NCBI GenBank assembly: GCA_964510025.1
Contig: CAZDZV010000006.1
Coordinates: 11,143-75,142 of the forward strand
DNA length: 64,000 bases
Origin: an uncultured Methanosarcinales archaeon
Lineage (GTDB): Archaea; Nanobdellota; Nanobdellia; Woesearchaeales; DATDXC01
Direction: 5' to 3'
Positions 17,883-64,000 of this stretch are shown piece by piece. The notes under the pieces were generated by a model that saw only the letters and a list, made by a program, of their open reading frames with translations, did not search any database and was not told where the DNA came from. Both the position numbers and the translations under genes were made by a program. Position 1 is the stretch's first letter. Each line of letters opens with the position of its first letter.

Positions 17883-18718
17883 AGGTTGATTTCGATTTCC
17901 ATACCCATACTGACGTATCTGATGGTAGCTTAAGCCCTTCTGCCCTGGTCAGAAAAGCCAAGCGTGAAGGATTGAGGCTTATTGCGATAACAGACCACGA
18001 CAATATTGACGGTATACCTGAAGCAGTTGAGACTGGCAGGAAGATAGGTATTGATGTCATTCCGGGTGTGGAGATTAGCATTGACTTCAAGGCTACGATG
18101 CATATGTGCGGCTACTTCATCGACATAACTGATACCCAGCTCAGAAAAGCCCTGAAGTTTGTGCAGGATGCTCGCAGAGACAGAAATCCTCAGATTATCG
18201 ATAAGCTGAACAAGCTGGGCATGGATGTGAGGATTGAAGATGTTAAGAAACATGCAGGCAGGGATCAGATTGGAAGGCCCCATTTCGCAAAAGCGCTTAT
18301 CGAGAAAGGCTATGTTACGACAAAAGAAGAGGCCTTTGAAAAATATCTGGCAAAAGGCAGGCCGGCGTATGTAGACAAGAAGCGGCTTGACAGGGAGAAA
18401 GCAGTGAAGACCATCCTGGATGCAGGAGGCACTGCTGTCCTTGCGCATCCCAAGCAGCTTCGCCTGGACACTGCCAAAGAATACAGGAAGCTTTTTATGG
18501 AGATGAAGGAATTGGGCGTCTCTGGCATCGAAGCATACTCAAGCTGCCATACAGAAGATGAAAATAAGATGTTCAGGGAGATCGCTGATGAGCTGGGGAT
18601 GCTTGTCACCGGAGGCAGCGACTTCCATGGTGACACAAAACAAGATGTTGAACTAGGGGAATTCGGAGAGAACATTGATATTGACGTGGATAAGTTGGTT
18701 GAAAAGATGAAAGCATGA
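17879..18718 (+). CDS. PHP-family metal-dependent phosphoesterase (COG0613/TrpH-like)
   Basis: DFHTHTDVSDGS, AITDHD, GVEIS, LAHP motifs. ATGA overlap with the parB-like gene. Confidence 0.75.
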   Translation: MKVDFDFHTHTDVSDGSLSPSALVRKAKREGLRLIAITDHDNIDGIPEAVETGRKIGIDVIPGVEISIDFKATMHMCGYFIDITDTQLRKALKFVQDARRDRNPQIIDKLNKLGMDVRIEDVKKHAGRDQIGRPHFAKALIEKGYVTTKEEAFEKYLAKGRPAYVDKKRLDREKAVKTILDAGGTAVLAHPKQLRLDTAKEYRKLFMEMKELGVSGIEAYSSCHTEDENKMFREIADELGMLVTGGSDFHGDTKQDVELGEFGENIDIDVDKLVEKMKA

Positions 18719-34034: not shown

Positions 34035-35155
34035 CTTTCATAGTCAGCCACCCGATCCAGTATTTCTCTCCGCTATTTAGATTACTATCGAAAAAAATGG
34101 ACCTTACGGTCATTTATCTATCAGATGAAACATTGAAGACTTTCATGGATAAAGAATTTTCAGCAGCGATTAAGTGGGATATTCCTTTGTTAAAAGGGTA
34201 TAGGTACAAATTACTAAAAAATAATTCACCTGTCCATTCTGTTTCCAGGCCACCTTTTGGTTTATTAAATCTTGGGATTCTAAATGAGATAACCAATAAA
34301 AAATATGATTGCATAATAGTCCATGGGTGGCATTATGTAAGCCATTGGTTAGTCTACATCCTATGTATCCTTAGGCAGCTGCCTTTCTATATTAGGTCTG
34401 AATCTCCCCTAAACCAGGAAAAAACAAAGCCTGATTGGAAGATTTACATCAAAAAAATTTTACTTGGATATTTATTTCGTAGGGCAGCTGGTCTTCTGGC
34501 GATTGGAACTCAAAACAGGAGATTCTATGGGTTCTATGGGGTAGAAAATAAAAAAATCTTTTATGCACCTTATTCTGTCGATAATGATAGGCTTATGCCA
34601 AAAAAACGTAAAACTAAAAAAGACAAAATAGTAATCTTGTTTGTTGGGAAGCTTATAGAGAAAAAAAGGCCTATGGATCTGTTGCAGGCCTTTGAAAGGA
34701 TAAGTTATGAAACAAAAGCCCTGTATTTTGTAGGCGAAGGAAAAATGAAGAGACAGCTGCAAAAATATACGAAAAAAAATCATCTAAAAAACGTATTTTT
34801 CCCTGGATTTGTAAATCAGACAGCCCTCCCAGACTATTATAATATGGCGGATATATTTGTGCTTCCGTCTGGAATAGGAGAAACCTGGGGGCTGGTAGTA
34901 AACGAAGCAATGTGTTTTGGCCTCCCAGTTATAGTATCGGATATTTCAGGATGCAGCACAGATTTGGTAAAACAAGGCAAAAATGGCTACATATTTAAAA
35001 CAGGAGATATAGGACAATTGTCACGATATTTGAACATGCTTATAAAAAATAAGAAACTAAGAAACCAGATGGGATCTAGGTCTCTCAAAATCATAGGTCA
35101 ATTTAGCTGCAAAGCAGCAGCCGAAGGGATTGCTAAGGCTGTCAAGAGAAAATGA
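34022..35155 (+). CDS. Glycosyltransferase family 4
   Basis: GETWGLVVNEAMCFGLPVIVSDISG. Confidence 0.75.
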   Translation: MDKVAFIVSHPIQYFSPLFRLLSKKMDLTVIYLSDETLKTFMDKEFSAAIKWDIPLLKGYRYKLLKNNSPVHSVSRPPFGLLNLGILNEITNKKYDCIIVHGWHYVSHWLVYILCILRQLPFYIRSESPLNQEKTKPDWKIYIKKILLGYLFRRAAGLLAIGTQNRRFYGFYGVENKKIFYAPYSVDNDRLMPKKRKTKKDKIVILFVGKLIEKKRPMDLLQAFERISYETKALYFVGEGKMKRQLQKYTKKNHLKNVFFPGFVNQTALPDYYNMADIFVLPSGIGETWGLVVNEAMCFGLPVIVSDISGCSTDLVKQGKNGYIFKTGDIGQLSRYLNMLIKNKKLRNQMGSRSLKIIGQFSCKAAAEGIAKAVKRK

Positions 35156-36963
35156 AGCCATTTTTAAAAATAAGGAAAATTTTAGGACTTTTCAGAAAAC
35201 TCGAAATCCGCTTAGTTTACTTTGCGATCCCTATAGTTCTTTCGTTTCTAATAGCATTTTTTGAAGGCCTAAGCATCGGACTGCTAATACCCTTGGCTAA
35301 AGGGATTGTGGAGATGGAATTCAGTTTTGTGAGAAACCTTCCTTTTTTTAAGACAATCAATGACCTTTTCCCCCAGTTGCTAGCGCATAATAGGGCGATC
35401 TTTGTGACTCTTGTACTGATCATATTCATCTCAGCAGTCTTAAAAAATGTCTTCACCTATCTATCTTCCGTCATAGTAAGATATCAAATACGGCAAGCTG
35501 CGCATAAAGCAAGAAAGCACATATTCAATAGATATCTAAGTTTTGGCAAGCTTTTTTATGACAGGAATAATGAGGGCCATCTGCAAAGCATACTGCTCAG
35601 CTATACAAACTCGATCATAGGTCAGCTAGGCTCTATCTCCCACCTCATGAACGGCTCCGCTATGCTTCTTGTGTATTTTATTATGATGTTTTCCATATCC
35701 TGGAGATTGACTGTATTCATTCTGCTGATATTTCCGGTCCTGAACCTATCACTGAAATATCTGATTGCGAAGATAAAGAAAACCTCAAAGTTCTCGGCAG
35801 ATGCTAGGAAGAGGATGAACAGGGCAGTCTTCAACGTGCTTTCGTCTATACCGATTATAAAGGCATATACGAAAGAGGAGGAGGAAAAGAAGAACTTTGA
35901 CAAAATGAGCGAAGAAATGTCAAAATGGGACTTCAGTATGGATAAAAAATACGACCTGATAGGGCCAATGCAGGAAGTTATAACCTTGATAGCAGTACTG
36001 TTGGTAATCTCAGCCATGGCCTTCTTGTTTATAAAAACTAAGACAGGTGATATCTACGGGTTTGCCGTATTTTTTTATCTGTTGAAGAAATCCATGGGCA
36101 CGTTTGGTATCTTTAACAGCTTCAAGGGATCATTGGCAAAAGCCTCCGGACAGGTGCAAGAAATAATGCATATTCTCAGTGAGAAGAATAAGCATTATGT
36201 AAAAGGAGGAAGAAAAGAATTCAATGGATTGGAATCAGAGATTAAGCTGAGTAGGCTAAGCTTCCATTATGACTCAAAAGTTCCCATAATCAAGGACATA
36301 TCCTTCTCTATCAGAAAAGGAAAGATGACGGCTATTGTAGGGCCAACTGGCTCAGGTAAGACAACAATAATCAATCTTCTTCTGAGATTTTATGAATGCC
36401 CTGAAGGTTCTATATTTGTAGATGGGCGGGATATCAAGGAGTTCACGTTAAAATCGATAAGAAAGCATATGGCCCTTGTCAGCCAGGATACTATGCTTTT
36501 CAATGATACATTGAGAAAAAATATGACCTACGGAATAGACAGACAGGTGTCTCAGCAGGAGTTGGCTAGGATAGCAAAAAAGGCCCGGATCTATGACTAC
36601 ATCAAGAAGCTTCCGCGTGGCTTTGAAACGGTTATAGGTGATAGGGGAGTGCAGCTTTCTGGAGGTGAAAAGCAGAGGATATCGATTGCAAGAGCCCTCT
36701 TGAAGAACGCCGATATATTGATACTAGATGAAGCCACAAGCTCCCTGGACTCCAGAACAGAAAAGCTCATTCAGGAAGCTATCTACGAAGCTGTGAAGGG
36801 GAGAACCTCTATAGTCATCGCACACCGGCTTTCGACTATAAAGAACGCTGACAAGATTATCATCATTGAGAAAGGCAAGATAATTGAAAAAGGAAAACCC
36901 AAGGAACTGCTTGGAAAAAAAGGCAGATTCTATCAATATTGGCAGGAGCAGAAGTTTGAATAA
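35152..36963 (+). CDS. ABC exporter, fused permease-ATPase (MsbA/type I exporter-like): putative glycan/lipid-linked oligosaccharide exporter
   Basis: 6 TM helices, then Walker A GPTGSGKTT, signature LSGGEKQRISIARAL, Walker B ILILDEATS. Confidence 0.85.
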   Translation: MKPFLKIRKILGLFRKLEIRLVYFAIPIVLSFLIAFFEGLSIGLLIPLAKGIVEMEFSFVRNLPFFKTINDLFPQLLAHNRAIFVTLVLIIFISAVLKNVFTYLSSVIVRYQIRQAAHKARKHIFNRYLSFGKLFYDRNNEGHLQSILLSYTNSIIGQLGSISHLMNGSAMLLVYFIMMFSISWRLTVFILLIFPVLNLSLKYLIAKIKKTSKFSADARKRMNRAVFNVLSSIPIIKAYTKEEEEKKNFDKMSEEMSKWDFSMDKKYDLIGPMQEVITLIAVLLVISAMAFLFIKTKTGDIYGFAVFFYLLKKSMGTFGIFNSFKGSLAKASGQVQEIMHILSEKNKHYVKGGRKEFNGLESEIKLSRLSFHYDSKVPIIKDISFSIRKGKMTAIVGPTGSGKTTIINLLLRFYECPEGSIFVDGRDIKEFTLKSIRKHMALVSQDTMLFNDTLRKNMTYGIDRQVSQQELARIAKKARIYDYIKKLPRGFETVIGDRGVQLSGGEKQRISIARALLKNADILILDEATSSLDSRTEKLIQEAIYEAVKGRTSIVIAHRLSTIKNADKIIIIEKGKIIEKGKPKELLGKKGRFYQYWQEQKFE

Positions 36964-52036: not shown

Positions 52037-52966
52037 CTAAATTATGATGTCTTTTAGGATTCCTTGTTTTACTAATTCGATATTTATCAAGTAATCATTA
52101 TGCAGAAAAGTTTCAAATAATGATTTCTTTGTTGTTTTCCATCCAAGACCATCGGTAATCCAAATTAAGTCGATTCCTTGTTTTCTTAAGAAGTCTGATA
52201 AGTACTGATATTCACCAGCTGTTGACTTTAATTTTGACCCACCGCCACTATAATAATTGGTTTCAATTACAAAAATCTTATTTTTTGATTTCTCAAATAC
52301 TGCAAAATCAAATATTCGATTGGTTTTATCAAGTTCAATATCAAAATTCCATTTCTCCTTGATCTTTTTTTGTGTTGCTTGCGGAATGTAGTCCAAGTTA
52401 TTTTTCTCTGAGAATTTCAGTATTATCTTCTCAACAATGCTCTCCATTGATTGACCTGTACGGTTTTTTCTTGCATTTGTATCCATTCCTACTTCGACAC
52501 CAAAGCAATAGTCAACAATATTCTTAACATTTTTATCTTTGAATATACTTTTTAATCCCGATTCCTTAAAGAAAATTAGTATGTCTTCTCTTATATCTGA
52601 AGTAAGCTCAACATCAGGATTAAATAATTCCAGTTTACTACCAGACTTTAGCTCTTCAAAATCATCAATGATGTTTACTGCCTTTAATTTGCTTTTTCTG
52701 ATAGCAATGAGAATTGGAAGAACCTTTCTTACATTTGGATATTCAGTAATAAGTTCAATGAATTCTTTTTCTATATCGCTTTTTCCAATTAACACATTAA
52801 GAAGATTTAGCTCTTTTTCAATTAAGTGAGTGTTATTCTTAACTTTCTCAAAATCAACAAAATAATCCCATGTAAATATGGAATCTGTCAAAGTTTGTAC
52901 AAGATAGTCAAATATCCCTTTCTCATCTTTTAGGTTTAATTTTTCATATGTTTGTAAGTATTTCAT
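52037..52966 (-). CDS. Type II restriction endonuclease, R.DpnII (DpnB)-like; GATC specificity inferred
   Basis: YCFGVEVGMDTNARKNRTGQSME and FDFAVFEKSKNKIFVIETNYYSGGGSKLKSTA closely resemble my recollection of R.DpnII blocks. Confidence 0.7.
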   Translation of the reverse strand: MKYLQTYEKLNLKDEKGIFDYLVQTLTDSIFTWDYFVDFEKVKNNTHLIEKELNLLNVLIGKSDIEKEFIELITEYPNVRKVLPILIAIRKSKLKAVNIIDDFEELKSGSKLELFNPDVELTSDIREDILIFFKESGLKSIFKDKNVKNIVDYCFGVEVGMDTNARKNRTGQSMESIVEKIILKFSEKNNLDYIPQATQKKIKEKWNFDIELDKTNRIFDFAVFEKSKNKIFVIETNYYSGGGSKLKSTAGEYQYLSDFLRKQGIDLIWITDGLGWKTTKKSLFETFLHNDYLINIELVKQGILKDIII

Positions 52967-52975
52967 TTCTTCACC

Positions 52976-53809
52976 TTAATAGTTTGTAACGACAACTTCA
53001 TTTATCTTTCCCCTTTTGTCCCCATTACAATTGATCATTCTTGTTGCCTGAACAAAATGGATTTCATAATTAGGATATAATTCTTTAATAAATTTTGTAT
53101 CGCTATTGCTTAACATCACAAGGCAACCATTATCATCCAGTTTTTTGAATACTTCAGCAAGCTGTTTCTGCTCTTCTTCTAAAAATGTGTCTTTTGTGTA
53201 GGTTGTAAAACTCTTTCCTTTTTTAAGTGGATAATAAGGAGGATCAAAATAAATAAAGTCTCCTTTATTTGCTAGATTAACAACCTTTTCGAAAGACATT
53301 ACTTTAATCGTAACATTTTTCAATAATTCTGAAACTAGTCTTAATCTATCTTCTTGGACAATATCTGGATTTTTGTAGGAACCCATCGGAACGTTGAATT
53401 TTCCCTTTGAGTTTACTCTATATAGTCCATTGAAGCAAGTCTTATTTAAATAAATGAATCGTGCTGCTCTTTCAAGAGAAGGTAATTCTTTTGGATTTGT
53501 TGCACGAATTGTTAAATAATATTTTTTGCCTTCAACCATATGATATTCCTTATGCTGTTTTAATTCAATTATTAATCTCTCTACATCACCCCTTATGGTT
53601 TCGTAAGCATTGATTAATTCTTCATTTATGTCTGAAATAATAATTTCAGAAGGATTAAACTTTTGAATTATATAGAAGAAAACTGCTCCGCTACCAACAA
53701 AAGGCTCTAAATAGCGATTAAACTTCTTTGGAAATAATGGCTCAAACTGTTCTAAAAGTTGACCTTTACCGCCTGCCCATTTAACAAATTTGGGGATTTG
53801 GATATTCAT
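52976..53809 (-). CDS. Dam-family N6-adenine DNA methyltransferase (alpha class, DpnM-like)
   Basis: KWAGGKGQLL, EPFVGSGAVFF (motif I), FIYFDPPY (motif IV). Confidence 0.85.
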   Translation of the reverse strand: MNIQIPKFVKWAGGKGQLLEQFEPLFPKKFNRYLEPFVGSGAVFFYIIQKFNPSEIIISDINEELINAYETIRGDVERLIIELKQHKEYHMVEGKKYYLTIRATNPKELPSLERAARFIYLNKTCFNGLYRVNSKGKFNVPMGSYKNPDIVQEDRLRLVSELLKNVTIKVMSFEKVVNLANKGDFIYFDPPYYPLKKGKSFTTYTKDTFLEEEQKQLAEVFKKLDDNGCLVMLSNSDTKFIKELYPNYEIHFVQATRMINCNGDKRGKINEVVVTNY

Positions 53810-55563
53810 TTTTTATTCTCCACCAATTCAGAAACAAATACTTTTAAATTGTCTGTTACCAAATAACTTTTTTCTAATAATTTTTCACATATCATCTTAC
53901 AAATATACTTTTTCAACCCTTCATCACAGAAATTAATCACTTCTTTATCTGAATTTTTACTTTTTATCTTTTCAGTTGCAAAATTCAAAATTTCACTATT
54001 ATTATATGCCTGATTTGTTCTTTCCTTAAATTCATCATAAGCCATAATAGTATAGTGGTTTCTTTTATCTTTTAAAAATTCATTAATTGTTTCTAAAATT
54101 AATTTTGGTTCAAAAATATCTTCAATCTCAAAATTAGCTACATTATTTTCATAATTATCAAAACGCTTAACATATTTACATTCTACACTAAAACAGTTAT
54201 ATGTTTTTGACTTTATTTGTTGAAATATACTTTTTCCAGCTGTATCAAAATCAAAAAGTGCGATAATTTTTGGCTTAAAAGATAGATTATTGCAAAACAA
54301 TTCTAGAAATTGTAGGTAACCTTTATATTTATCAACCCCTCCTGCAACAAGAATATTAGGTTTGATAATTTTTAGTTGTTCAAATAATGCAAATAAATAA
54401 TCTTTATCTTCCTGTCCTTCCACCAATAGATTGAAAGGCAAGATCTCCCAAGAATCATTCTTAGAAATTCCTAGGTGCTCTTTGACCATGTACACTTTTT
54501 CAATACCTGCAGCATTATTTATTCTTGTATTTACTTCATAGAATTTCTCGTCTTTTTTCCTGATGTATTCTTTTAATTGTATATCTGCTTCTAGCAAAAC
54601 TACTTCTTCCACTTTCTCAAGCCGTATAAAATTTGGAGAATGTGTATTAATAATGGTTTGATATTTTTTTGAAAGTTGAAACAAGATATCACTTACCCTT
54701 TTCTGAAGTGATGGTTGAAGAAATGCTTCTGGCTCGTCAAACCCCCAGATAATCTCTTTTCCAGTTTTATCAGATATATATTCGATTAAAGAGTATAAAA
54801 CAATTCTCTGAATTCCGCTCCCTTTTGTTTCAATTTTGTTTGAATTGCTATCAATCAGAGTAAAATCAATTAAATCAGATAAAACTTCTCGTAAGTTAAT
54901 GTATTTTGGGAATAGAATTTCTGCCCTCCATAATGAATTATCTATCCCATTAATTCCATTTGTATATTTTTTGATATTTTCAGTAAGTTCTTTTTTTATT
55001 TCTACTAATGCCTTTTCAGATTCTTCAATAAAAGTATTCAAATGTTCCATTGGTTTTGTTTTTCTTTTTCTCAGATTATCCAGGGGAGTTAATAATTCAT
55101 TACTAACAAACCTTGCAATCTCTTTAGAAGTGTCAATATTACTAGCTTCGACCATAATAAATTGATATTTATTTAGAACATTTTTACAATCTTTATCGCT
55201 CATTAGGGTTTCTTGTTTACCTTTTACTTTTATTTTGCCCTCTATCGTTAATGATTTGATTCCCTTTTTCTGCTCTTTATATGTTGTAGAAATAGTAATT
55301 CTATCTTGATTTTTATTAACAAATTCAGCTGTGATTTTTGTTCTGAATCCTGCTCCTCTTTTTCCATAGTAGATATGATGAGGAATATCCTCGTTAGCAT
55401 TAAATTTATTTTCGTCTAACGAGAAGAACAAATTTATAGCTCGTAATACATTTGTTTTACCAACATTATTTGAACCACAAATGATTTTATAGTTATCATT
55501 AGAGAAATCAATCTTTAACTTACTTATTGATCTGTAATTACTTATACTTATTTTCTTTAACAT
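53806..55563 (-). CDS. OLD-family nuclease (class 1): N-terminal AAA_15/ABC-type ATPase plus C-terminal Toprim
   Basis: Walker A GSNNVGKTN; Q-loop/signature region; Walker B IIWGFDEPEAFL; H-loop INTHSP; Toprim LLVEGQED and FDFDTAG. ATGA overlap with the Dam gene. Confidence 0.75.
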   Translation of the reverse strand: MLKKISISNYRSISKLKIDFSNDNYKIICGSNNVGKTNVLRAINLFFSLDENKFNANEDIPHHIYYGKRGAGFRTKITAEFVNKNQDRITISTTYKEQKKGIKSLTIEGKIKVKGKQETLMSDKDCKNVLNKYQFIMVEASNIDTSKEIARFVSNELLTPLDNLRKRKTKPMEHLNTFIEESEKALVEIKKELTENIKKYTNGINGIDNSLWRAEILFPKYINLREVLSDLIDFTLIDSNSNKIETKGSGIQRIVLYSLIEYISDKTGKEIIWGFDEPEAFLQPSLQKRVSDILFQLSKKYQTIINTHSPNFIRLEKVEEVVLLEADIQLKEYIRKKDEKFYEVNTRINNAAGIEKVYMVKEHLGISKNDSWEILPFNLLVEGQEDKDYLFALFEQLKIIKPNILVAGGVDKYKGYLQFLELFCNNLSFKPKIIALFDFDTAGKSIFQQIKSKTYNCFSVECKYVKRFDNYENNVANFEIEDIFEPKLILETINEFLKDKRNHYTIMAYDEFKERTNQAYNNSEILNFATEKIKSKNSDKEVINFCDEGLKKYICKMICEKLLEKSYLVTDNLKVFVSELVENKK

Positions 55564-55579
55564 TATTTCCCCAGTATAG

Positions 55580-56365
55580 TCAAATAAGCTTATTCTTTAT
55601 AGAGTTTATCCTTTTTATTGTGGTTTTTAAAAAATTCTCCTCTTTATCAATACCTATAAATTGTCGATTAAGCATACTTGATACAACCCCTGTAGTACCA
55701 GATCCATTAAATGGATCTAGTACAACGGCATTTTCTTTTGTTGAAGATGCGATAATTCTTCTCAATAATTCTATTGGCTTTTGAGTGGGATGCTTTCCAT
55801 GAGTCTTTTCGCTCATTGGAGTTAACGGAATATGCCAAATGCTCCTCATTTGTTTACCTTTTGGAGCAATATTATCATCCCATTCCCTCATTAAATCATA
55901 ATTAAAAACATGAGGAATCTTCCCATCTTTTCTTGCCCATAAAACAGTTTCATGTGCATGAGCAAAATACCTGCAGCTTAAATTTGGTGGTGCATTAGGT
56001 TTAAACCATGCAATTTCATTTAATAATTTGAAATTGAGCTTTTGTAACGCATATCCTACTTGGTATATATTATGCATTGTCCCAGAAATCCAAATAGTAC
56101 CATTATCTTTTAATACCTTACGACATGCATTTATCCATTCATAAGTGAATTTGAAATCTTTGTCTATTCCATTAGATTTATCCCAGTCTGCTTTATTAAC
56201 TGAGACCATTTTACCAGCCCTGCAAGAGATCCCTCCGTTAGATAGGAAATAAGGTGGATCTGCAAAAACCATATCAACAGATTTTTCAGGTAATGTGTTT
56301 AGAATACTAATACAATCATTATGGAAAAGTTGCACAGTTTCAGACTTGTAATAGGGTTTAATCAT
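55580..56365 (-). CDS. N6-adenine DNA methyltransferase, beta class (DpnA / M2.DpnII-like)
   Basis: MVFADPPYFLSNGGIS (motif IV first), NGTIWISG, NLSCRYF, GKHPTQKP, VLDPFNGSGTTGV (motif I last). Confidence 0.8.
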   Translation of the reverse strand: MIKPYYKSETVQLFHNDCISILNTLPEKSVDMVFADPPYFLSNGGISCRAGKMVSVNKADWDKSNGIDKDFKFTYEWINACRKVLKDNGTIWISGTMHNIYQVGYALQKLNFKLLNEIAWFKPNAPPNLSCRYFAHAHETVLWARKDGKIPHVFNYDLMREWDDNIAPKGKQMRSIWHIPLTPMSEKTHGKHPTQKPIELLRRIIASSTKENAVVLDPFNGSGTTGVVSSMLNRQFIGIDKEENFLKTTIKRINSIKNKLI

Positions 56366-56495
56366 TTATAAATCTAATAAAGTCCTTTATTATAAACTTT
56401 GTTATTAAACTTTCGAAATATTACTATTTTCTTTGCAATGAGCCGTCTCATCGCCCCCTCTCTTCGCAGATCCTTCTATATACAATGCAAGCCTT

Positions 56496-57113
56496 ATGTA
56501 TTACATACTCCGAACGTTGCTTATAAACGATGGGAGCCTTAAATTAGGTGGTGATAAAATGACCTTGGAATATAAGCGTGAACCTCTAGAAGAGGATGAA
56601 GTGTTGGCTTTAAGGAGAGCATCTACTTTCTTTGAAGAAGAATTAGTTATAAACTGTCTGTTAGATACTGGCATGAGAGTATCAGAGCTTGCCAACCTAA
56701 GAGAAGAAAATATCTCCTGGCAAAGAAACTGTATCAGCTTGATAGGAAAAGGTAATAAGCGTAGGGTGATCCCAATGAGTAAAAGAGTAAGGCTACTCCT
56801 ATTAGACTGTTTTTCTCACAATAATACCAAATTTCCATTAGCCATGCGAACAATCCAAAAATATGTTAAAATCGTGGCAGACAAGGCAAGGATAAGAAAA
56901 ACTGTAAGCCCTCACGTGCTAAGACACACATTTGCAGTAACCTATCTTCACAGAGGAGGCAATTTAAGGGCATTACAGGCTATTCTAGGGCATAGTTCCA
57001 TAACAACTACTGATATTTACCTCAACTACTCAGGGAAGCGAGTTATTGATGATTTTCAAAGAATATGGAATGAGCCAGATACAAATAACAAGTTATTGAC
57101 GGGGTATTTTTAA
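56496..57113 (+). CDS. Tyrosine recombinase/integrase (short XerC/D-like)
   Basis: R..(box I) ...HVLRHTFAV...LGHSSITTTDIYL (R-H-R-Y catalytic set). Confidence 0.75.
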   Translation: MYYILRTLLINDGSLKLGGDKMTLEYKREPLEEDEVLALRRASTFFEEELVINCLLDTGMRVSELANLREENISWQRNCISLIGKGNKRRVIPMSKRVRLLLLDCFSHNNTKFPLAMRTIQKYVKIVADKARIRKTVSPHVLRHTFAVTYLHRGGNLRALQAILGHSSITTTDIYLNYSGKRVIDDFQRIWNEPDTNNKLLTGYF

Positions 57114-57115
57114 AA

Positions 57116-58162
57116 ATGGCAAAAAACATCTTCTTTTTTATTATTAAGCATGGAGCTTTGCTTGGCATAGCATTTCCATTTATATTATCCATAAAAATAA
57201 GCACATCTCCTTTTGGTTTGGTACATTTAGTGTTAACCCTAATTATTTTGGAATACTATGCTTATTCCATACACCAGTTTTTATTTGATTTTCAGGATAA
57301 AAGAAGAAAGTTAAGAATAAAAAAATTTGAAGAGTCTAAACTGATTGATAAATTCCTAAATGCTAAATTAGATTACTCTAAATCTTCAGAACTATTAGAG
57401 TTAATTTCTATTATAAAGAATACAGAATTCTTGCCAAAATTAAAAGAAATGTATAATCAGAAAATCGAAGAAAAAATGATTTATGCTGAAAGACTACTTG
57501 AGAAATTACAGCACCAAGAAGAAATACAAGAACTTGAGCTGAAGAAAAGTCAACTTAATAACAACATTCAATATCTAATAAAGCAAGAAAAGGAGATGAC
57601 TCAAACAGAAGAAGAAAGGAAGGAAGATCTAAAGGGGGAGATGAATCTTGAAGAAAATAAGGTGTTTGAAGAGTCAGATCTTACTGATGAAAAAGCAAAT
57701 TTTCTTCTGGAAGAAGGATACGAACAAACCAATCAATATTCAATTATGGAAGAAGGAAATATCTCGGTTTATATCAAACCCGTACTTAATCATTCAAAAT
57801 CACATATGTTTTTGGTTTACGAATTAAAGCAGATTTTGGAACATTGGTATGAAGCTGAAAACATAGAAGAGCATCTAACAAAGGATGCAGACCTTACTTT
57901 CAAGTATAACAAGAAAATCTACGCTCTGGAAGTTGAGACAGGAACATTGCTGAAAAAGAAAGACCAAGCTAGAGATAAAGTAGAATATCTAAATAGGAAA
58001 TATCAAAACAGATGGATGTTCATAGTAACAAATAGAAACCAAGTGGCTAAATACAAGAAATTAGGAATAGTCAGTGAGAGAAAGCAGGTGACAAAAAATC
58101 TTGATAAGATGCTAAAACTCCGCACCCCCCTAGATCGGGTGTCTGAGGAATTTCCCGACTAA
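57116..58162 (+). CDS. Membrane-anchored coiled-coil protein with a C-terminal putative nuclease-like domain; hypothetical
   Basis: Two N-terminal TM helices; long E/K-rich coiled coil; C-terminal HMFLVYELK...KDADLTF...YALEVETG... Confidence 0.45.
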   Translation: MAKNIFFFIIKHGALLGIAFPFILSIKISTSPFGLVHLVLTLIILEYYAYSIHQFLFDFQDKRRKLRIKKFEESKLIDKFLNAKLDYSKSSELLELISIIKNTEFLPKLKEMYNQKIEEKMIYAERLLEKLQHQEEIQELELKKSQLNNNIQYLIKQEKEMTQTEEERKEDLKGEMNLEENKVFEESDLTDEKANFLLEEGYEQTNQYSIMEEGNISVYIKPVLNHSKSHMFLVYELKQILEHWYEAENIEEHLTKDADLTFKYNKKIYALEVETGTLLKKKDQARDKVEYLNRKYQNRWMFIVTNRNQVAKYKKLGIVSERKQVTKNLDKMLKLRTPLDRVSEEFPD

Positions 58163-58215
58163 AAAATCACTAAAATAGTCACTTATTCAATCTCCGTATA
58201 ATATCACTTCTTATA

Positions 58216-58977
58216 TTACATAAGGCTATTTTCCAGCTTCTCAATTTTTACAAGCATCTCGTACTTCTCTTTGAATTCTTCCATACTTAACTCTCCCTCC
58301 ACATACTTCATCTTGAGTGCTTCCAATGGTTCAATTGTAGATTCTTTTGTGGATTGCTTCGGCTCTCTCTTCGTACCAAAAGCCATGTTTATCTTGTTTT
58401 GTAAGTCTTTATTTGTAATGTAAGCATAGATTTGGGTAGTATGGATATCAACATGCCCAAGAGATCTCTGAACATAGTAGAGGTCGACTCCTTTTTCTAG
58501 TAGATAGGTTGCATAGGTATGTCTCAATGTATGAAAACTGTAAGCATACCTTTGCTGTCCAAGTTGTGTTTTGAAAGTCTCGATACTAAGCTTAGCTTTC
58601 AGAAGATATTTTCTAAAATGCTTGCTTAAAATGTTGTTAGCAAATGGTCTTCCAGAATAGTTTGAAATAAAATACTCTGATTCATCTGAAAGCCTGAACC
58701 ATTTCTCAATCAATGGTTTGACTTTTTCAGGTAGCATCACTACTCTGTCTTTGCTACCTTTTCCCTGTCTTACAATTACCCTTTCAGCTTCAAGATCAAC
58801 ATCTTGTTTTTTCAGATTGCAGACTTCACTTATACGCAGACCACAAAACAAGGCAATAATACAGCCCATAAATATATTTGCATCATCAATCTGCTCAAAA
58901 AGTGCCATTAATTGCTTTTTATTGAAAACATTAGGTAGTTTTCTTTTTGTATTTGGTCTCCCGAATCTCATCTTCAC
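58216..58977 (-). CDS. Tyrosine recombinase/integrase
   Basis: HTLRHTYATYLL...LGHVDIHTTQIYAYI; box I LRISE. Confidence 0.8.
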   Translation of the reverse strand: MKMRFGRPNTKRKLPNVFNKKQLMALFEQIDDANIFMGCIIALFCGLRISEVCNLKKQDVDLEAERVIVRQGKGSKDRVVMLPEKVKPLIEKWFRLSDESEYFISNYSGRPFANNILSKHFRKYLLKAKLSIETFKTQLGQQRYAYSFHTLRHTYATYLLEKGVDLYYVQRSLGHVDIHTTQIYAYITNKDLQNKINMAFGTKREPKQSTKESTIEPLEALKMKYVEGELSMEEFKEKYEMLVKIEKLENSLM

Positions 58978-59381
58978 ATCCTCGCAATAAGGTTTAATCC
59001 ATGATCCCTGATCACTTGGGTTACATCTTCAAACCTTTCCTGTCTTCGCTTTAAAGCCTCAGAAACCGCTTTTTTCTGCGATATAGTCCTCTGCTTGATC
59101 TGGAACTTGATGTCAATCGGAATCTTTTCTAAAAGCAACCATCTGTAAACCGTAAAGGGGTTATAGCTACTTTTGATAAGAAAATCATACAACTCCTTCT
59201 CTAGCCCAAGAACTAGAAACTTCTTCCTATTATAATGAAAATGAGCTAATTTACCCATAATCTGCAAGAAATCACGACTCTCTAGCTGAGGAAGACGACT
59301 ATATACCAATTTCCTCAAGCATTCTAGCTTCTGGACAAAATTTTTCTGCATATCTGCTTGTTTCACGACCGACACCCCCAT
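58974..59381 (-). CDS. Hypothetical protein co-transcribed with the integrase (4-nt overlap)
   Basis: ORF only; basic; no recognised motif. Confidence 0.35.
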   Translation of the reverse strand: MGVSVVKQADMQKNFVQKLECLRKLVYSRLPQLESRDFLQIMGKLAHFHYNRKKFLVLGLEKELYDFLIKSSYNPFTVYRWLLLEKIPIDIKFQIKQRTISQKKAVSEALKRRQERFEDVTQVIRDHGLNLIARM

Positions 59382-59507: not shown

Positions 59508-59738
59508 ATGGATATCGAAGGGCCTGTATTCAGGATTATCGTAAAGCCGAGCAGTCCAAATAATAAGGTGCTTGGCTATGATAAGGCTAAAAAAGCATAT
59601 AAGGTACAGATAAAAGCAAAACCAGAAAAAGATAAGGCTAACATTGAAACAGTAAAATTTTTGTCCAGATTGCTTAAGAGAAAGGTAAAGATAATAAAAG
59701 GCTTCAGGAGTAAGCAGAAGATACTATCTTTTGAATAA
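59508..59738 (+). CDS. DUF167 (YggU-like) small protein
   Basis: VFRIIVKPSSPNNKVLGYD...YKVQIKAKPEKDKANIETVKFLSRLLKRKVKIIKGFRSKQKIL matches the DUF167 consensus. Confidence 0.65.
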   Translation: MDIEGPVFRIIVKPSSPNNKVLGYDKAKKAYKVQIKAKPEKDKANIETVKFLSRLLKRKVKIIKGFRSKQKILSFE

Positions 59739-61688
59739 TTTTCGCCTAACCAGGACCACCAAGATAATAAGGATACCGAAGATAGTCAGGAGGCCGCCTA
59801 AAATGTCAGCAAAAGTCTTTCCATAATAAAGCCTGACATGCTCTGATTCTGGATATACAAGCATAAAGCTTGGGCTAACCAGGTATACCTTATCCGCTCC
59901 TTGCACCTTCCAGTTAGGGAAGTAGGAAACCTTGATTACATGCGGTTTGCCTGTGCAGTCTGTCCTGAATATGATTTCTTCGTCGCTAATTAGCTCTTCG
60001 TTTATTTCACATGCATTATCGATCTTTTTTATGGCCATATTTTCAGCTGAATTCTCAAAGACAACATAATAGCTCAGATTAGACTGCTCAAACCATATCA
60101 TGGAATTTTTTTTCCAGTTCCTCCTCGGATATGTCAGTGGACGATATTTTGGAACTTCGATATATCCTGTCTGGCTGATTTCATATATCTCAATATTTTC
60201 TATCTTCTCCAAAAGCCGGAAACCTGGATGATTCCTAGCCTTGAATTTTACAGAATCAGAGGTAGCTAAGAAATATCTTATGTTGAATAGTCCCATATGT
60301 TTCAGGCCCCTGTCAATATCGACATCAGGGCAGCTCAGGCCCATGATAGGGCAGGAAGCATTTTCAGATAGCTCTGCCTGCATTATGAAATGGAAAGGTG
60401 CTGTGATAGATGAGTCTACAAACAGCCCGGTGATTACTGGTTTATTCGCAAAAACAGGTATAGTCTCAAATGCTCTTGGACTCCCGAATCTGTCATGAGA
60501 GTCGCTGTATTCGTAGAAAATCCTTCCATCAGGCAGATTCTTGAGATAATGTGTTAGTTCAAAGAAAGAACCTTCTTTTTTTTCCAAACCTTCATAGTTC
60601 CATTTTATCCAGCTGGGGGTGTACGCTGTTGTCAGGTTGGCGTATACTAGGACAAGAAGGACAAATAATACGATAAAAATCTCAGTATATTTGGTCTTTT
60701 CTAGAAGATTCTTTATCGGTATAGCGGCCAGAAGCAGCATGAACAGGTAAACAAAAGGTAAAAATCTCACGTTCCATATATGGCCATCTGGCAGTGCAAA
60801 AAAGACAACAAGGGACACAAAGACTATATACATAAAGAAACGTATACGCTCATCCTTGAAGTATAGGATAGCCCCTAAGATTGCGACTGCATAGAAGACA
60901 ATAAGTGTGGGCGGAACTAGAAGCATGATGTTATGCAGCTGGTTCCAGTTGTAGGAGGTTGTATAGCCTATCTTAGCCATGAATGGAACTGACCAGAAAG
61001 CAGAAAGCGAAAAAGCCAGCAGTCCAATTTTCGTAAGATAGACAGAATTATGCTTCAACCTCCTTTGTAGTAAAAAAAAGACCGAGCCTAACGCCGCTAT
61101 CACTGCAACAAAAACATGCGTTAAGGCTATGGAAGCCAGCAACACCGAGTTCAAAATGATATGCTTCCTATGCTTAATGCCATAGTAGAGAAAACCGAAA
61201 TACACCAGCAGTAGTGAAATTGCAATGCTGTGACAAAACTCGCCTGCTAAAGTGCTGGCAATATTACCCCCATACATAGAATGGCTCTCTAAAAAAAGGA
61301 AAGGCAGCACCAGGACAGAGGCTATGACTGGCTTTCTTATGCCCATAAGCTTGAACATCAGATAGGCTGAAGCTGGTAAGGAAAATATTCCTATGACTGT
61401 AATGATCCTAAATGCCAGCTCCAGCGGGATTACATAGGACAAGCCGGCAATTAGTAGAAAAGGCAGCTGGAAATAAAACTGAAACATTGGCAGCCCTGCA
61501 AACCAGGACAAAGAAAAACCTGAAATCCTGCCTTTACCCAGGCTCTCCCTCATAAATCCTGCTGCATGATAATGTGATATAGTGTCTCCTCCAGCCACAG
61601 CCTCAGACTGAAAAACCAGCTGCGGGCTGAAGTAAGCAAATAAGAAAGAGTAGATTATAACCAAAATCAGCATATCTATGTATTTCAT
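59724..61688 (-). CDS. Polytopic membrane protein with a large extracytoplasmic C-terminal domain and a terminal TM anchor (GT-C/YfhO-like architecture)
   Basis: About 13 N-terminal TM helices, ~250-aa soluble domain, final TM ILGGLLTIFGILIILVVLV + RRKLFKR. Start 1 nt after the mre11 stop. Confidence 0.5.
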   Translation of the reverse strand: MKYIDMLILVIIYSFLFAYFSPQLVFQSEAVAGGDTISHYHAAGFMRESLGKGRISGFSLSWFAGLPMFQFYFQLPFLLIAGLSYVIPLELAFRIITVIGIFSLPASAYLMFKLMGIRKPVIASVLVLPFLFLESHSMYGGNIASTLAGEFCHSIAISLLLVYFGFLYYGIKHRKHIILNSVLLASIALTHVFVAVIAALGSVFFLLQRRLKHNSVYLTKIGLLAFSLSAFWSVPFMAKIGYTTSYNWNQLHNIMLLVPPTLIVFYAVAILGAILYFKDERIRFFMYIVFVSLVVFFALPDGHIWNVRFLPFVYLFMLLLAAIPIKNLLEKTKYTEIFIVLFVLLVLVYANLTTAYTPSWIKWNYEGLEKKEGSFFELTHYLKNLPDGRIFYEYSDSHDRFGSPRAFETIPVFANKPVITGLFVDSSITAPFHFIMQAELSENASCPIMGLSCPDVDIDRGLKHMGLFNIRYFLATSDSVKFKARNHPGFRLLEKIENIEIYEISQTGYIEVPKYRPLTYPRRNWKKNSMIWFEQSNLSYYVVFENSAENMAIKKIDNACEINEELISDEEIIFRTDCTGKPHVIKVSYFPNWKVQGADKVYLVSPSFMLVYPESEHVRLYYGKTFADILGGLLTIFGILIILVVLVRRKLFKR

Positions 61689-61689
61689 C

Positions 61690-62868
61690 TCAGATATTCA
61701 AAATTCTTGAAACGTTCTCCTTGATTCTTTTTTCAAAATCTGAAACCTTCTCGCCCTCATTTCTTCCGGTAGAAAGCACCTTCATAAGTTCTTTTGTAAT
61801 CTCCAGATTGCCTGCATTTTCCCTGATAAGCTTATCCTCAATATCCTCGACACTGTCAGCATCTATCTTAATCTCATCAAACTCCTTGGTTGTTAAGGAT
61901 ACGGTATTTTTCATGACAAAATATGCTCCTTTATCATATATCATCTGGATGATGCTCTTAAAGTCGATATCAGAAGGTTTCCCTGTCTCCAGCACGCCGC
62001 CTAACCTTATGGTCACGATTGTATTGATAAACTCCTTATCCTTGATTTCGTCCTTAAGCATCGATTCCACCTGCTCCACGGTCCTGTGGTCGCATTCCAG
62101 CTTTATAGGATAGGTGTTGTAGATCTGCACAGGTTCCCAGCTAAGCTGGCCTTCTTCGTAAATATAGAAGCCGCCGTTTCCTAGTTTTTCCAGCTCCGAG
62201 AAGTTGTTTGGAAAAAGCGGCCCTGGATATGAGATCATACCATAGCCTTGCTCAGCCTTATTGTAGACAAAATGTGGATGTCCGCCAGCGTAGTAATTGA
62301 AATTCCTTGGAAGCAGGGAGATGGGTTGCGAATCTGCATTTTGCATCTCCTTTGGCTTTAGCTCTGTCAGCAATGAGTGGAACATGAAAATTTTGAAGCC
62401 ACCTTCCTTTTCCAGAGGATCCCGGTTAAGTTCTTCATAAAAACCCTTTTCAAGGCCCCCTCTTTTGCCCACCAGCCCTGTAATCTTTGCTCCTGTAATC
62501 TCATCTATGGTGAACTGCAGGTCCAGCTTCCCGTCCTTTACCTTGCCTCTAGCTACGTTTATGCATAAACCAGCATTTTCGAGCACATCCAGCATAGTCT
62601 TTCCAGAAGGTGAAAAATCGTGGCTGCCTGCAATTATATAGAAAGGGATTCCTTTGTCCTTGATCTCCTTGAGCTTTTTTGTGACCGCTTTAAGCTTGTC
62701 GATGGCTGGCAAAGAAGTATTGAAAAGGTCACCTGAAACTATGATAAAGTCGACTTTTTTGCTTGCTGCAAGGTCAATTGCCTTTTGGAATGCCTGCAGG
62801 CTTATGTTGTTTAGCTTAGGGTCTCTCCAGCTGCCAATATGGCAGTCTGCCAGATGAGCGAATTTCAT
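61690..62868 (-). CDS. mre11: Mre11/SbcD-family metallophosphoesterase
   Basis: DCHIG (motif I), SGDLFN (II), AGSHD (III), FMFHS (IV), GGHPH (V). Confidence 0.75.
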   Translation of the reverse strand: MKFAHLADCHIGSWRDPKLNNISLQAFQKAIDLAASKKVDFIIVSGDLFNTSLPAIDKLKAVTKKLKEIKDKGIPFYIIAGSHDFSPSGKTMLDVLENAGLCINVARGKVKDGKLDLQFTIDEITGAKITGLVGKRGGLEKGFYEELNRDPLEKEGGFKIFMFHSLLTELKPKEMQNADSQPISLLPRNFNYYAGGHPHFVYNKAEQGYGMISYPGPLFPNNFSELEKLGNGGFYIYEEGQLSWEPVQIYNTYPIKLECDHRTVEQVESMLKDEIKDKEFINTIVTIRLGGVLETGKPSDIDFKSIIQMIYDKGAYFVMKNTVSLTTKEFDEIKIDADSVEDIEDKLIRENAGNLEITKELMKVLSTGRNEGEKVSDFEKRIKENVSRILNI

Positions 62869-62901
62869 ATTAGCAGGTAATCGACAAATATATATAAAGA
62901 T

Positions 62902-64000
62902 TTATGATAATTTGATGCCGCTAAAATCTCTTGGGCTATCAGATTTATCTTTCCTGGAAAAATTATCGAAGAGGCTGATCTTTATAGGCGTGGCGAACCT
63001 AGCGAAGTTGCTTGAAAGGATAGCTTCGCCCACATCTAGCGAAGCGATGTTCCTGTCGTCCTCGCTAAGATCCTGGGCTGCTGAATCTATGATGGCCTGT
63101 CTTTCAGGCTTCATCTCTATGCCCAAGATTATCTTAGTATTTATATTTGCCAGTATCTGCCTCGGTATCAGAGAGGGCAGCTGCGTTATGGCTGTCAGAC
63201 CAACTTTAAATTTCCTTCCTTCCCTAGCGATCGTGGAAAATATATTTGGACCTTTTTCCAGGACTTCCTTGCCTAGCACTCTGGGTGCTTCTTCTAATAT
63301 TATTGAAATAACAGGCTTGTCCCGTAAAGTCCCTTCTGTTTTGTAATGCTTGTATTTGTTAAAGACCTCTGTGCTAATGAGGCTGCCGATCAGGATCTCT
63401 ATTTCACCAGCATATCCTGAAGTGTCTATTATTACTGTTTTGCTTGCTTCAAGCTCTTGGCCTATATCCCTTAATGTCGAAATCCCGCTCTTAAGCTGGA
63501 AGATACCGTTAAAAAATAGCTGGTTATCTGCAAAATCAATATCCAACAGCCTGAGCATCCTTCTTCTTAGGACAGCAAGTGTAGCTTCATTGAACCCATC
63601 CACTGGTTTCTCCAGGATTATGGCTTCGATCCATTTTTTTTGGTATTTGTGATAAAAGGCAGCCAGGCCTTCCCTTTGGGCCTGCGACCAGTCAACGACC
63701 CCGTTGAAATGTGCAGGTCTGATGAGCTCCAGGTTTATCCTAAGGGTTTTGCCCCCGGGAGGGGCATCTTTTGGCCGGTAATATACGATATTATTCTTAG
63801 TAGGGTGGTTCTTTATCCTACCATAGTACTCATCATGAGGATCAAGGACAAGTATGCCGCAGTAATCCTTGTCGATGCTGTCCCAGAGCATGCATGACAT
63901 AAGGTTAGATTTTCCTTTTCCTGTTGTTGCAGGAATAAGGATATGATGTGAGAAAGCCTTTACACCATCCAGGTATATGCCTACATCCAACACCTTGCTG
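62902..64000 (-). CDS. herA: HerA/FtsK-superfamily ATPase, partial (N-terminus lies beyond the window end)
   Basis: Walker [10 protein letters not shown], Walker [13 protein letters not shown] (EEAH-type), ITQLPS sensor. No stop before position 64000, and the expected HAS-barrel N-domain is missing. Confidence 0.7.

Follow-up and report, generated by a model that had tools for sequence, protein, structure and literature searches.

Genes at the end of the window

The end of the window, the 64,000-nt stretch of DNA analyzed here, carries three minus-strand ORFs that were confirmed as real. The herA fragment (62902-64000 and beyond) contains the C-terminal ~365 codons of a ~500-aa HerA/FtsK-type hexameric ATPase; its frame stays open up to the window end, and the N-terminus lies past it. 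The gene for an Mre11-type nuclease of 392 aa (61690-62868) starts 33 nt after the herA stop and is separated by 1 nt (junction TGA-G-ATG) from a gene for a 654-aa membrane protein (59724-61688), a PF10131 (PTPS_related) GT-C-fold glycosyltransferase candidate by Pfam, AF2 and Foldseek. A first-pass annotation, made from the letters of the DNA, had named the same three genes and both spacers; the identities agree with the profile and structure matches and the spacers with the sequence. The convergent plus-strand gene yggU/DUF167 (59508-59738; Pfam 1.1e-14) overlaps the 3' end of the GT-C gene by 15 nt.

Within the herA-mre11 spacer, TTTATATATA (62889-62898, minus strand) occupies -30 to -21 relative to the mre11 start codon ATG and may be the archaeal TATA box of a leaderless transcript that spans mre11 and the GT-C gene; a sigma-70 promoter scan is inapplicable because the host is an archaeon. 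A defence island with a DpnII restriction-modification system, an OLD/AriA-like ATPase and two integrases lies 0.3-7.7 kb downstream.

The membrane protein as a candidate GT-C glycosyltransferase

The membrane protein matched PF10131 over residues 69-544 (E 1.4e-37; 130 bits vs a gathering score of 26.4), a family without characterised function that is placed in the GT-C clan CL0111 (PMC7801869). In its AF2 model (pLDDT 93.1, pTM 0.92), about 12 N-terminal TM helices (60615-61688, minus strand) are followed by a soluble extracytoplasmic domain at about residues 359-622 (59823-60614, minus strand) and one C-terminal TM helix (59730-59813, minus strand), a topology like the one first read from the sequence. 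The best 21 matches in a Foldseek search against the PDB were all GT-C-type enzymes, and AftD, STT3, PglB, ArnT, AglB, AftA, DPY19, Pmt4 and PimE were among the matches. The GT-C-like architecture proposed in the first-pass annotation was therefore confirmed by both Pfam and AF2/Foldseek.

The first extracytoplasmic loop carries the motif GGDTISH (61572-61592, minus strand), of which G33, G34, D35 and H39 are at least 90% conserved among 38 homologues, and D35 is a candidate catalytic acid. With its Pfam score, polytopic GT-C fold and conserved acidic residue in the first loop, the protein resembles the GT-C glycosyltransferases of CL0111 (PF10131, AftD, STT3/PglB/AglB, ArnT, AftA, DPY19) in fold, loop-1 Asp and large extracytoplasmic domain. 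On this reading, the enzyme would take a sugar from a putative polyprenyl-phosphate-linked donor and pass it to an acceptor at the external face of the membrane, with the candidate catalytic Asp35 acting in the first external loop.

Homologues with 43-44% identity adjoin GT2 genes (~220-232 aa), PMT, PMT_2 and DUF2079 genes and other GT-C genes, and neither herA nor mre11 was present near them in their loci. The GT2 and GT-C neighbours lend contextual support to the polyprenyl-phosphate-linked donor. The window genome differs from these loci in having no GT2 gene beside the PF10131 gene. The GC content of the gene (0.41) is that of the host genome. Family and predicted fold place the membrane protein among the PF10131 GT-C glycosyltransferases, and it is unrelated to the herA-mre11 module.

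HerA and the Mre11-like protein

The HerA fragment matched the DUF87/HerA central domain of Pfam (PF01935; E 2.9e-25, 90.1 bits vs a cut-off of 23.2). Its Walker A motif, TTGKGKS (63907-63927, minus strand), was read from the sequence and aligns in an orthologue to the P-loop of S. solfataricus HerA (4d2i). Walker B reads IILEEAP (63283-63303, minus strand) and is followed by an 11-residue motif at 63196-63228; the Walker A of the first-pass annotation is thus retained, and its EEAH-type Walker B is corrected to EEAP. The best PDB match of a full-length orthologue was 4d2i (1.7e-25), over both the N-terminal and ATPase regions. Residues 22-218, the N-terminal region on which the question of a HAS-barrel turns, align to 4d2i residues 21-205, and the motif AREGRKF is common to both proteins. 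S. solfataricus HerA differs in its partner, as no NurA gene lies nearby here. The orthologue reached 2e-29 with the NCBIfam HerA models, at 102 bits vs an equivalog cut-off of 800, and scored better with these repair-type models than with CedD (7.8e-17) or HerA_antiphage (1.8e-12). HerA would act as a hexameric ATP-driven DNA translocase.

The Mre11-like protein matched Metallophos in Pfam (1.2e-13) and the NCBIfam model Mre11_Pyroc across residues 1-381 (2.6e-27), although the equivalog cut-offs were not reached (Mre11_Pyroc 95.8 bits vs 600, Mre11_Sulfo 74 vs 500). Its best match by sequence was P. furiosus Mre11 (1ii7, 1e-21), and identity to this protein and to M. jannaschii Mre11 (3av0, 5dny) is only 23-24%. 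The top 50 Foldseek matches of its AF2 model (pLDDT 85.9) in the PDB were Mre11/SbcD structures without exception, aligned over 340-360 columns; the best was again 1ii7 (E 6.5e-20; TM-score 0.74 normalised to the target). The model reproduces the overall Mre11 fold on the minus strand as a nuclease domain (62179-62868), a capping domain of residues 232-327 (61888-62175), a disordered linker (61810-61875) and a C-terminal helix-loop-helix with helices 355-365 and 375-390 (61699-61806). The protein would be a metal-dependent nuclease with these capping and helix-loop-helix parts.

The first-pass annotation had assigned all five phosphoesterase motifs to this protein. Motifs I (DxH), II (GD), IV (H) and V (GHxH) are canonical, as in the P. 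furiosus and M. jannaschii enzymes, whereas motif III (62617-62628, minus strand) reads GSHD instead of GNH(D/E). Alignment to P. furiosus GNHD places Ser82 at the canonical metal-ligand Asn, and His83 and Asp84 are kept. The serine is invariant in 160 of 160 orthologues and in all 131 full-length representatives clustered at 50% identity; judging from every full-length sequence checked, GSHD appears to define a Woesearchaeota Mre11 clade.

With a serine in this metal-ligand position, the nuclease may or may not work as a canonical Mre11 does. Hopfner and co-workers are said to have found in 2001 that Asn84 of P. furiosus Mre11, the residue aligned with Ser82, ligates a Mn ion. An Mre11-like protein with altered or lost nuclease activity that chiefly serves HerA as a scaffold or as a partner in DNA binding would be consistent with this ligand and with the invariance of Ser82. 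However, the 160 orthologues also share, without exception, D8, H10, D47, H83, H164, H197 and H199, which comprise the other metal ligands and the catalytic His, as well as G46 and G196. Such conservation of the ligands and the His points to selection acting on an active site, and we regard altered activity as quite unlikely.

The membrane protein gene in related loci

None of 165 related mre11 loci, among them 109 with 2.5 kb or more of downstream sequence, yielded a homologue of the membrane protein. The gene downstream of mre11 is the GT-C gene in the window and yggU, gatB or others in relatives; only in the window genome does a GT-C gene stand between mre11 and convergent yggU. A related lineage (L168, L169 and L002; 68% Mre11 identity) has the gene order of the window minus the GT-C gene, namely oapC-oapB-GTPase on the minus strand, then herA-mre11 preceded by two small genes, A and B (described below), and convergent yggU, which mre11 abuts. 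In the closest relative compared, at 71% Mre11 identity, a 208-aa ORF lies between mre11 and convergent gatB. From these gene orders we infer that the GT-C gene was inserted between mre11 and yggU rather than lost in relatives, and yggU would mark the boundary of the insertion.

Because the GT-C neighbour occurs in only one genome, its pairing with herA-mre11 is best read as chance adjacency. With 1 nt between them on one strand, mre11 and the GT-C gene very probably share a transcript in the window genome; in a genome this compact, such spacing probably amounts to joint transcription and does not indicate that the products work as a complex. Taken alone, the synteny data are also compatible with a lineage-specific functional link between the two genes.

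The first-pass annotation had considered a non-canonical, membrane-associated HerA/Mre11 module, that is, a membrane-anchored machine for DNA uptake, export or defence. The shared strand and 1-nt spacing, the defence island downstream and the occurrence of HerA-family ATPases in Ced and anti-phage systems, seen here in the CedD and HerA_antiphage scores, are in line with such a machine. The order herA-mre11-membrane gene is not conserved in relatives, however, and the homologues of the membrane protein, a GT-C glycosyltransferase by family and predicted fold, sit in glycosylation contexts. HerA prefers the repair-type models, Mre11 and the membrane protein gave no PADLOC matches, and the context of herA-mre11 is conserved housekeeping (oapABC, gatCAB, aspS). 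The Ced DNA import, Sir2-HerA and DUF4297-HerA anti-phage systems share a HerA-family ATPase with this locus, but PADLOC and NCBIfam revealed no CedA-type, Sir2 or DUF4297 partner beside HerA, where the membrane neighbour is a glycosyltransferase. A membrane-anchored machine is therefore very improbable.

Genes upstream of herA

A protein encoded on the Logan contig L170 is identical to one recorded for the 81,699-bp contig from which the window comes, so that L170 gives an indirect view of the sequence past position 64000; it does not overlap the window, and ~75 codons of herA fall into the gap between them. On L170, oapB and a GTPase gene on the minus strand are followed by gene A for an HTH protein of 182 aa, gene B for a DUF3368 PIN-like protein of 226 aa, and the start of herA, whose 66 encoded N-terminal residues are 83% identical to a relative's HerA. 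The A-B-herA overlaps on this contig, from the window's own organism or strain, are 4 nt each, and relatives share the A-B order upstream of herA.

A herA-mre11-rad50-nurA operon is described for thermophilic archaea (PMC2288612, PMC3326311), and the first-pass annotation had noted that no Rad50-like Walker A protein was present in the gene string. The window indeed holds neither Rad50 nor NurA: its sole SMC_N-like P-loop protein is an OLD/AriA-type ATPase (53806-55563), and its remaining large unannotated ORFs have no P-loop. The annotation had then suggested that rad50 and nurA lie upstream of herA beyond the window, in a four-gene system of unusual order. Besides the existence of the canonical operon, the C-terminal helix-loop-helix of the Mre11-like protein, which resembles a Rad50-binding domain, favors this suggestion. 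L170, however, shows A and B in place of rad50 and nurA directly upstream of herA and the divergent oap genes farther up, and relatives have the same order. In none of 160 loci does a Rad50-like ORF occur at a distance of up to 10 kb from mre11, and the genes inserted between herA and mre11 in relatives are neither Rad50 nor NurA. Among the flanking genes searched, whether upstream of herA, between herA and mre11, or downstream, none gave a NurA Pfam match. A four-gene system with rad50 and nurA just past the window is thus extremely unlikely.

The locus resembles the canonical operon of Sulfolobus and Pyrococcus in the adjacency and order of herA and mre11, in its FtsK/HerA-type HerA and in an Mre11 with nuclease, capping and C-terminal helix-loop-helix parts. 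Only herA and mre11 are contiguous, with A and B upstream; it differs in having no rad50 or nurA after mre11 or before herA, here or in ~160 relatives, so that the Rad50 gene adjoining mre11 is missing, and in its HTH and DUF3368 PIN-like partners and GSHD motif.

The A-B pair lies directly upstream of herA in about one-third of lineages, and the two are fused as one protein in L076. Both proteins weakly match exactly the exclusive COG2405 (DUF3368 PIN-like)/UPF0175 pair, and B has weak but reciprocal matches to DUF3368 and UPF0175. Residues D7, E43, D125 and E126 of B are invariant or near-invariant, a pattern that resembles a PIN active site. Pairs of COG2405 and UPF0175 are usually interpreted as toxin-antitoxin modules (PMC5499597). 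The pair beside herA, however, keeps its synteny and shows vertical conservation at ~50% identity in a phylum-level lineage, with a fusion in one genome, which is atypical for mobile modules of this kind.

These features, with the 4-nt overlaps, the GSHD-defined clade and the lack of rad50 or nurA in ~2.2 Mb around mre11, would fit a module independent of Rad50 and NurA, in which B with its HTH partner A replaces NurA beside HerA and the GSHD Mre11 acts without Rad50. Against it stand the usual toxin-antitoxin reading of such pairs, the absence of B upstream of herA in most lineages and a search scope made up of mre11 flanks. In addition, the conserved helix-loop-helix of Mre11 suggests that a Rad50 partner persists, and the B family had no PDB or significant Pfam match by profile. 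We consider this replacement unlikely.

The herA-mre11 pair in Woesearchaeota

herA lies upstream of mre11 on the same strand in 46 of the 65 loci with at least 9 kb upstream, and a physical Mre11-HerA interaction is documented for Sulfolobus (PMC2288612). Homology, predicted folds and synteny together make a conserved herA-mre11 repair pair with an unrelated GT-C neighbour the probable explanation of the locus. The window ends within a Woesearchaeota-type (DPANN) gene string with herA-mre11 as the conserved core, preceded in the window organism by two small genes, HTH and DUF3368/COG2405 PIN-like, that appear to be translationally coupled. We infer the activities of HerA and Mre11, which together would most likely form the lineage's DNA-end-processing (double-strand-break resection) module; neither rad50 nor nurA is linked to it. 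What remains is modest: Woesearchaeota keep a herA-mre11 pair that often follows two genes for HTH and PIN-like proteins and to which rad50 and nurA are unlinked.

A metagenomic 954-aa HerA::Mre11-like fusion was seen once, on a single contig of 7 kb, where a sequencing error may have created it. The surroundings of herA-mre11 in relatives are a hotspot of unrelated insertions (GGDEF, AAA, MatE, amidohydrolase).

Structure of the herA-mre11-membrane gene string

The three ORFs named in the first-pass annotation are all present, and all lie on the minus strand. The herA frame (from 62902) stays open up to the window end at 64000; its product fragment matches Pfam DUF87/HerA (E = 2.9e-25) and carries TTGKGKS as Walker A and LEEAP as Walker B. 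As described, the herA TAA is followed after 33 nt by a gene for a 392-aa metallophosphoesterase (mre11, 61690-62868), and mre11 is separated by 1 nt from a gene for a 654-aa membrane protein (59724-61688), the junction reading TGA-G-ATG. The membrane gene, assigned below to the GT-C type, is probably co-transcribed with mre11. The herA-mre11 spacer (62869-62901) contains a TATA-like TTTATATATA at -30 to -21 from the mre11 ATG, which would fit an archaeal TATA box for an mre11/GT-C transcript lacking a leader; relatives often have a 4-nt overlap of herA and mre11 in place of such a spacer. A scan for sigma-70 promoters and terminators was uninformative, the organism being an archaeon.

The window encodes no Rad50, as had been claimed: its other large unannotated ORFs lack a P-loop, and the sole SMC_N-like P-loop protein is an OLD/AriA-type ATPase within a restriction-modification island. 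A split Rad50 made of two unannotated ORFs at 2767-5581 was also considered and was rejected, as both ORFs lack a P-loop and their products resemble secreted or cell-surface proteins.

Gene order at mre11 loci of relatives

The Mre11-like protein was used as a query against GTDB representative genomes and JGI metagenomes, yielding 160 loci at 51–69% identity, nearly all labelled Woesearchaeota, Nanoarchaeota or Nanoarchaeia, with a few bins labelled "uncultured Methanosarcinales" or Aminicenantes. No relative above 69–71% identity was found in these scans. The protein database holds 3,897 Mre11-like relatives, and an exhaustive search of 50%-identity representatives gave 372 clusters at E ≤ 1e-30. 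Many contigs with the Woesearchaeota-type cluster (L002, L003, L005, L011 and others) are titled "uncultured Methanosarcinales archaeon", and one with the same cluster type (L047) "Candidatus Aminicenantes bacterium"; mislabelling or contamination of the bins is the probable cause.

Among the 65 loci with at least 9 kb upstream, 46 have a same-strand herA upstream of mre11; herA is directly adjacent in about a third. The genes in between are heterogeneous at other loci (GGDEF, AAA, MatE, amidohydrolase and others), so the herA-mre11 neighbourhood tolerates frequent unrelated insertions. Pfam scans of the ten largest same-strand intervening genes returned those four families, NAGPA and a second metallophosphatase, and neither Rad50 nor NurA.

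The herA-mre11-membrane order is not conserved. No membrane-gene homologue was detected by tblastn (E threshold 1e-4, after an initial pass at 1e-3) at any of the 165 related mre11 loci, 109 of which hold at least 2.5 kb downstream; in 53 of these 109, mre11 is followed by a convergent gatB-gatA-PPIase-gatC. The closest relative (71% Mre11 identity) has a 208-aa ORF and then gatB downstream of mre11. In a related lineage with 68% Mre11 identity (L002, L168 and L169), oapC-oapB-GTPase on the minus strand is followed by two small genes, here called A and B, then herA-mre11 and a convergent yggU, which is the arrangement of the window minus the GT-C gene. In the window, the GT-C gene and the convergent yggU/DUF167 gene share 15 nt at their 3' ends (59724-59738); mre11 and yggU of L168 likewise overlap, by 11 nt. 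The GT-C gene is thus a lineage-specific neighbour of herA-mre11. An arrival together with the nearby integrase island was considered and rejected, as the gene has a host-like GC of 0.41 against 0.27–0.39 in the island, and yggU stands between the two.

The membrane protein as a candidate GT-C glycosyltransferase

The membrane protein matches PF10131 (PTPS_related) with an E-value of 1.4e-37, and its topology is as had been described, with about 12 TM helices at the N-terminal side, then a soluble domain (about 265 aa) and one TM helix at the C-terminus. PF10131 is placed in the GT-C clan CL0111 and has no characterised function (PMC7801869). An AF2 model built on 38 homologues was very confident (pLDDT 93.1, pTM 0.92), and the 21 PDB structures closest to it are without exception enzymes of the GT-C type, namely AftD, STT3, PglB, AglB, ArnT, AftA, DPY19, Pmt4, PimE and a GPI-transamidase subunit, which bears out the GT-C-like architecture proposed earlier. 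The first external loop contains a GGD..H motif (D35, H39) with conservation of 90% or more across the 38 homologues. This loop is where GT-C enzymes carry the catalytic acid, and D35 is a candidate for that role because its position matches. The nearest homologues are only 43–44% identical; they adjoin GT2, PMT, PMT_2 and DUF2079 genes, and herA or mre11 is never adjacent.

The proposal of a membrane-associated HerA/Mre11 module for DNA uptake, export or defence is therefore unsupported, given the lack of a membrane-gene homologue at the 165 related loci, the GT-C fold and the glycosylation-gene contexts, and a false lead is removed. PF10131 is a large, functionally uncharacterised GT-C family, for which the high-confidence model and the conserved GGD-H loop offer an entry point for study.

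The region upstream of herA and the question of rad50 and nurA

The first-pass annotation had also allowed that rad50 and nurA might lie just upstream of herA, beyond position 64000. A query with the PIN-like protein of L168 found a 226-aa PF11848/DUF3368 protein (P0250) that is absent from the window and is recorded on an NCBI contig of 81,699 bp, the length also listed for the contig of the window's membrane and Mre11 proteins. A Logan contig (L170) encodes an identical copy of P0250. On it, minus-strand genes for oapB and a GTPase precede A (182 aa), which is followed by B (226 aa) and by the initial 66 codons of a HerA-like gene, with a 4-nt overlap at each of the A-B and B-herA junctions. 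The product of this gene start shares 83% identity with the N-terminal part of HerA from a relative. L170 and the window do not overlap and are separated by a gap of about 75 codons, so the region past 64000 is bridged only indirectly. The order A-B-herA therefore speaks strongly against a position of rad50 and nurA immediately upstream of herA, and that idea is unsupported.

A Rad50-like ORF was likewise not found within 10 kb of mre11 at the 160 loci, and a regex screen (N-terminal Walker A, ORFs of at least 450–500 aa, CxxC hook) was blank in 2,237 ORFs. Literature searches yielded nothing usable on Rad50, Mre11 or HerA of Woesearchaeota or DPANN archaea.

The genes oapC, oapB and a small GTPase gene are divergent from A-B-herA-mre11 in L168 (3569-5023), L010 (5721-7139) and L170 (187-1280). 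Since they match Pfam "origin-associated protein" families, the cluster may lie near a replication origin.

The A-B gene pair

The pair lies immediately upstream of herA with 4-nt overlaps in L170 (1314-2539), L168 (5259-6499), L010 (7209-8500) and L076 (4454-5686), where A and B are fused into one 410-aa ORF. A is a protein of about 183 aa with a C-terminal HTH region and a weak UPF0175 match. B has about 229 aa, invariant or near-invariant D7, E43, D125 and E126, and precomputed or weak matches to DUF3368/COG2405 PIN-like proteins. The B family profile found nothing in the PDB even at an E-value of 10, and per-member Pfam scans gave noise only; B is considered PIN-like because of the weak DUF3368 and UPF0175 matches together with the pattern of acidic residues. 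UPF0175 exclusively accompanies PIN-like proteins of COG2405/DUF3368, in pairs that are interpreted as toxin-antitoxin-like (PMC5499597). The A-B pair resembles a toxin-antitoxin module, yet it is vertically conserved beside herA. As its synteny is conserved, we speculate that the pair may serve HerA as a nuclease partner and stand in for NurA.

The Mre11-like protein and its GSHD motif

The Mre11-like protein matches NCBIfam Mre11_Pyroc over residues 1–381 with an E-value of 2.6e-27, far under the equivalog cut-off, and P. furiosus Mre11 (1ii7) with an E-value of 1e-21. Its AF2 model (pLDDT 85.9) shows a nuclease domain (1–230), a capping domain (232–327), a disordered linker (332–353) and a helix-loop-helix (355–390), and the top 50 PDB neighbours are all Mre11/SbcD, 1ii7 being the best (E = 6.5e-20).

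All five Mre11 motifs had been claimed, and four of them hold; motif III (62617-62628) reads GSHD, not GNHD. The Ser replaces Asn in all 160 orthologues (loci L001-L169) and in all 131 full-length 50%-identity representatives (P0361-P0510), down to 36% identity. Apart from the Asn position of motif III, every Mre11 metal ligand is invariant across the Woesearchaeota-type clade, with D8, H10, D47, H83, H164, H197 and H199 unchanged in the 160 orthologues. The Ser of GSHD aligns with Asn84 of P. furiosus Mre11, a residue said to ligate a Mn ion in the 2001 work of Hopfner et al. Literature searches on the GSHD variant or on Asn84 returned nothing. We file the protein as a divergent Mre11-family clade because its fold and architecture fit, whereas it departs from Mre11 at one defining position in the motifs and falls short of the equivalog thresholds.

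HerA-Mre11 coupling and a proposed role in DNA-end resection

In Sulfolobus acidocaldarius, HerA is bound by Mre11 (PMC2288612). A 954-aa metagenomic predicted protein from ENA (P0472) joins a full HerA, which over 493 aa shares 46% identity with a relative's HerA, to an Mre11-like domain with GSHD. Either the fusion is genuine or a stop codon has been lost, and the protein is weak evidence for coupling because it is a singleton cluster on one 7,060-bp contig.

What remains new is a variant, spread across the phylum, of the archaeal cluster for end resection; it is composed of the HTH and PIN-like genes, herA and a GSHD mre11, and has neither rad50 nor nurA linked to it. Three points would interest archaeal DNA-repair specialists: a very large DPANN clade keeps herA and mre11 paired, with rad50 and nurA unlinked or perhaps missing; a normally invariant Mre11 metal ligand is substituted in every full-length sequence checked; and herA is translationally coupled to the HTH and PIN-like gene pair in many genomes. 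It is conceivable, and we consider it improbable, that Woesearchaeota and Nanoarchaeota resect DNA ends without Rad50 and NurA; the HerA hexamer would then act with the GSHD Mre11, whose helix-loop-helix would dock on HerA, and the COG2405 PIN-like nuclease and HTH protein would stand in for NurA. The retained C-terminal helix-loop-helix in the predicted model suggests instead a Rad50 partner encoded elsewhere in the genome. Should Rad50 be absent from these reduced genomes, Mre11 and HerA would be able to act as a minimal resection unit, and the clade would offer a natural test of which functions of Mre11 need Rad50.

Other features of the window

The low-GC island (52037-59381; GC 0.27–0.39) is bordered or interrupted by a pair of tyrosine recombinase genes (56496-57113, plus strand; 58216-58977, minus strand). 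Within the island is a DpnII-type restriction-modification cassette with a REase (52037-52966), a D12 Dam-like MTase (52976-53809) and an N6_N4 MTase (55580-56365); an insertion between the methyltransferase genes encodes the OLD/AriA-like AAA_15 ATPase (53806-55563). Two further island ORFs (57116-58162 and 58974-59381) are unannotated.

A long, co-directional surface-glycan biosynthesis cluster occupies about 18700-46000 on the plus strand and includes a Wzy_C-like polymerase/ligase (18715-20118), an ABC exporter (35152-36963), several GT2 and GT1/GT4 genes and a gene for a DUF4330 protein; a ParB-like gene (17070-17882) lies just upstream. About 14 kb separate the cluster from the GT-C gene, and the GT-C protein may receive its lipid-linked donor from this cluster.

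The regions 228-5581 and 8005-9669 encode several large proteins, secreted or anchored in the membrane, that have no family matches and are probably cell-surface proteins of a DPANN archaeon. One protein in these regions, of 848 aa, shows a Laminin_G_3/MopE motif, and two others, of 455 and 554 aa, each carry a TM anchor near the C-terminus with a basic tail behind it.
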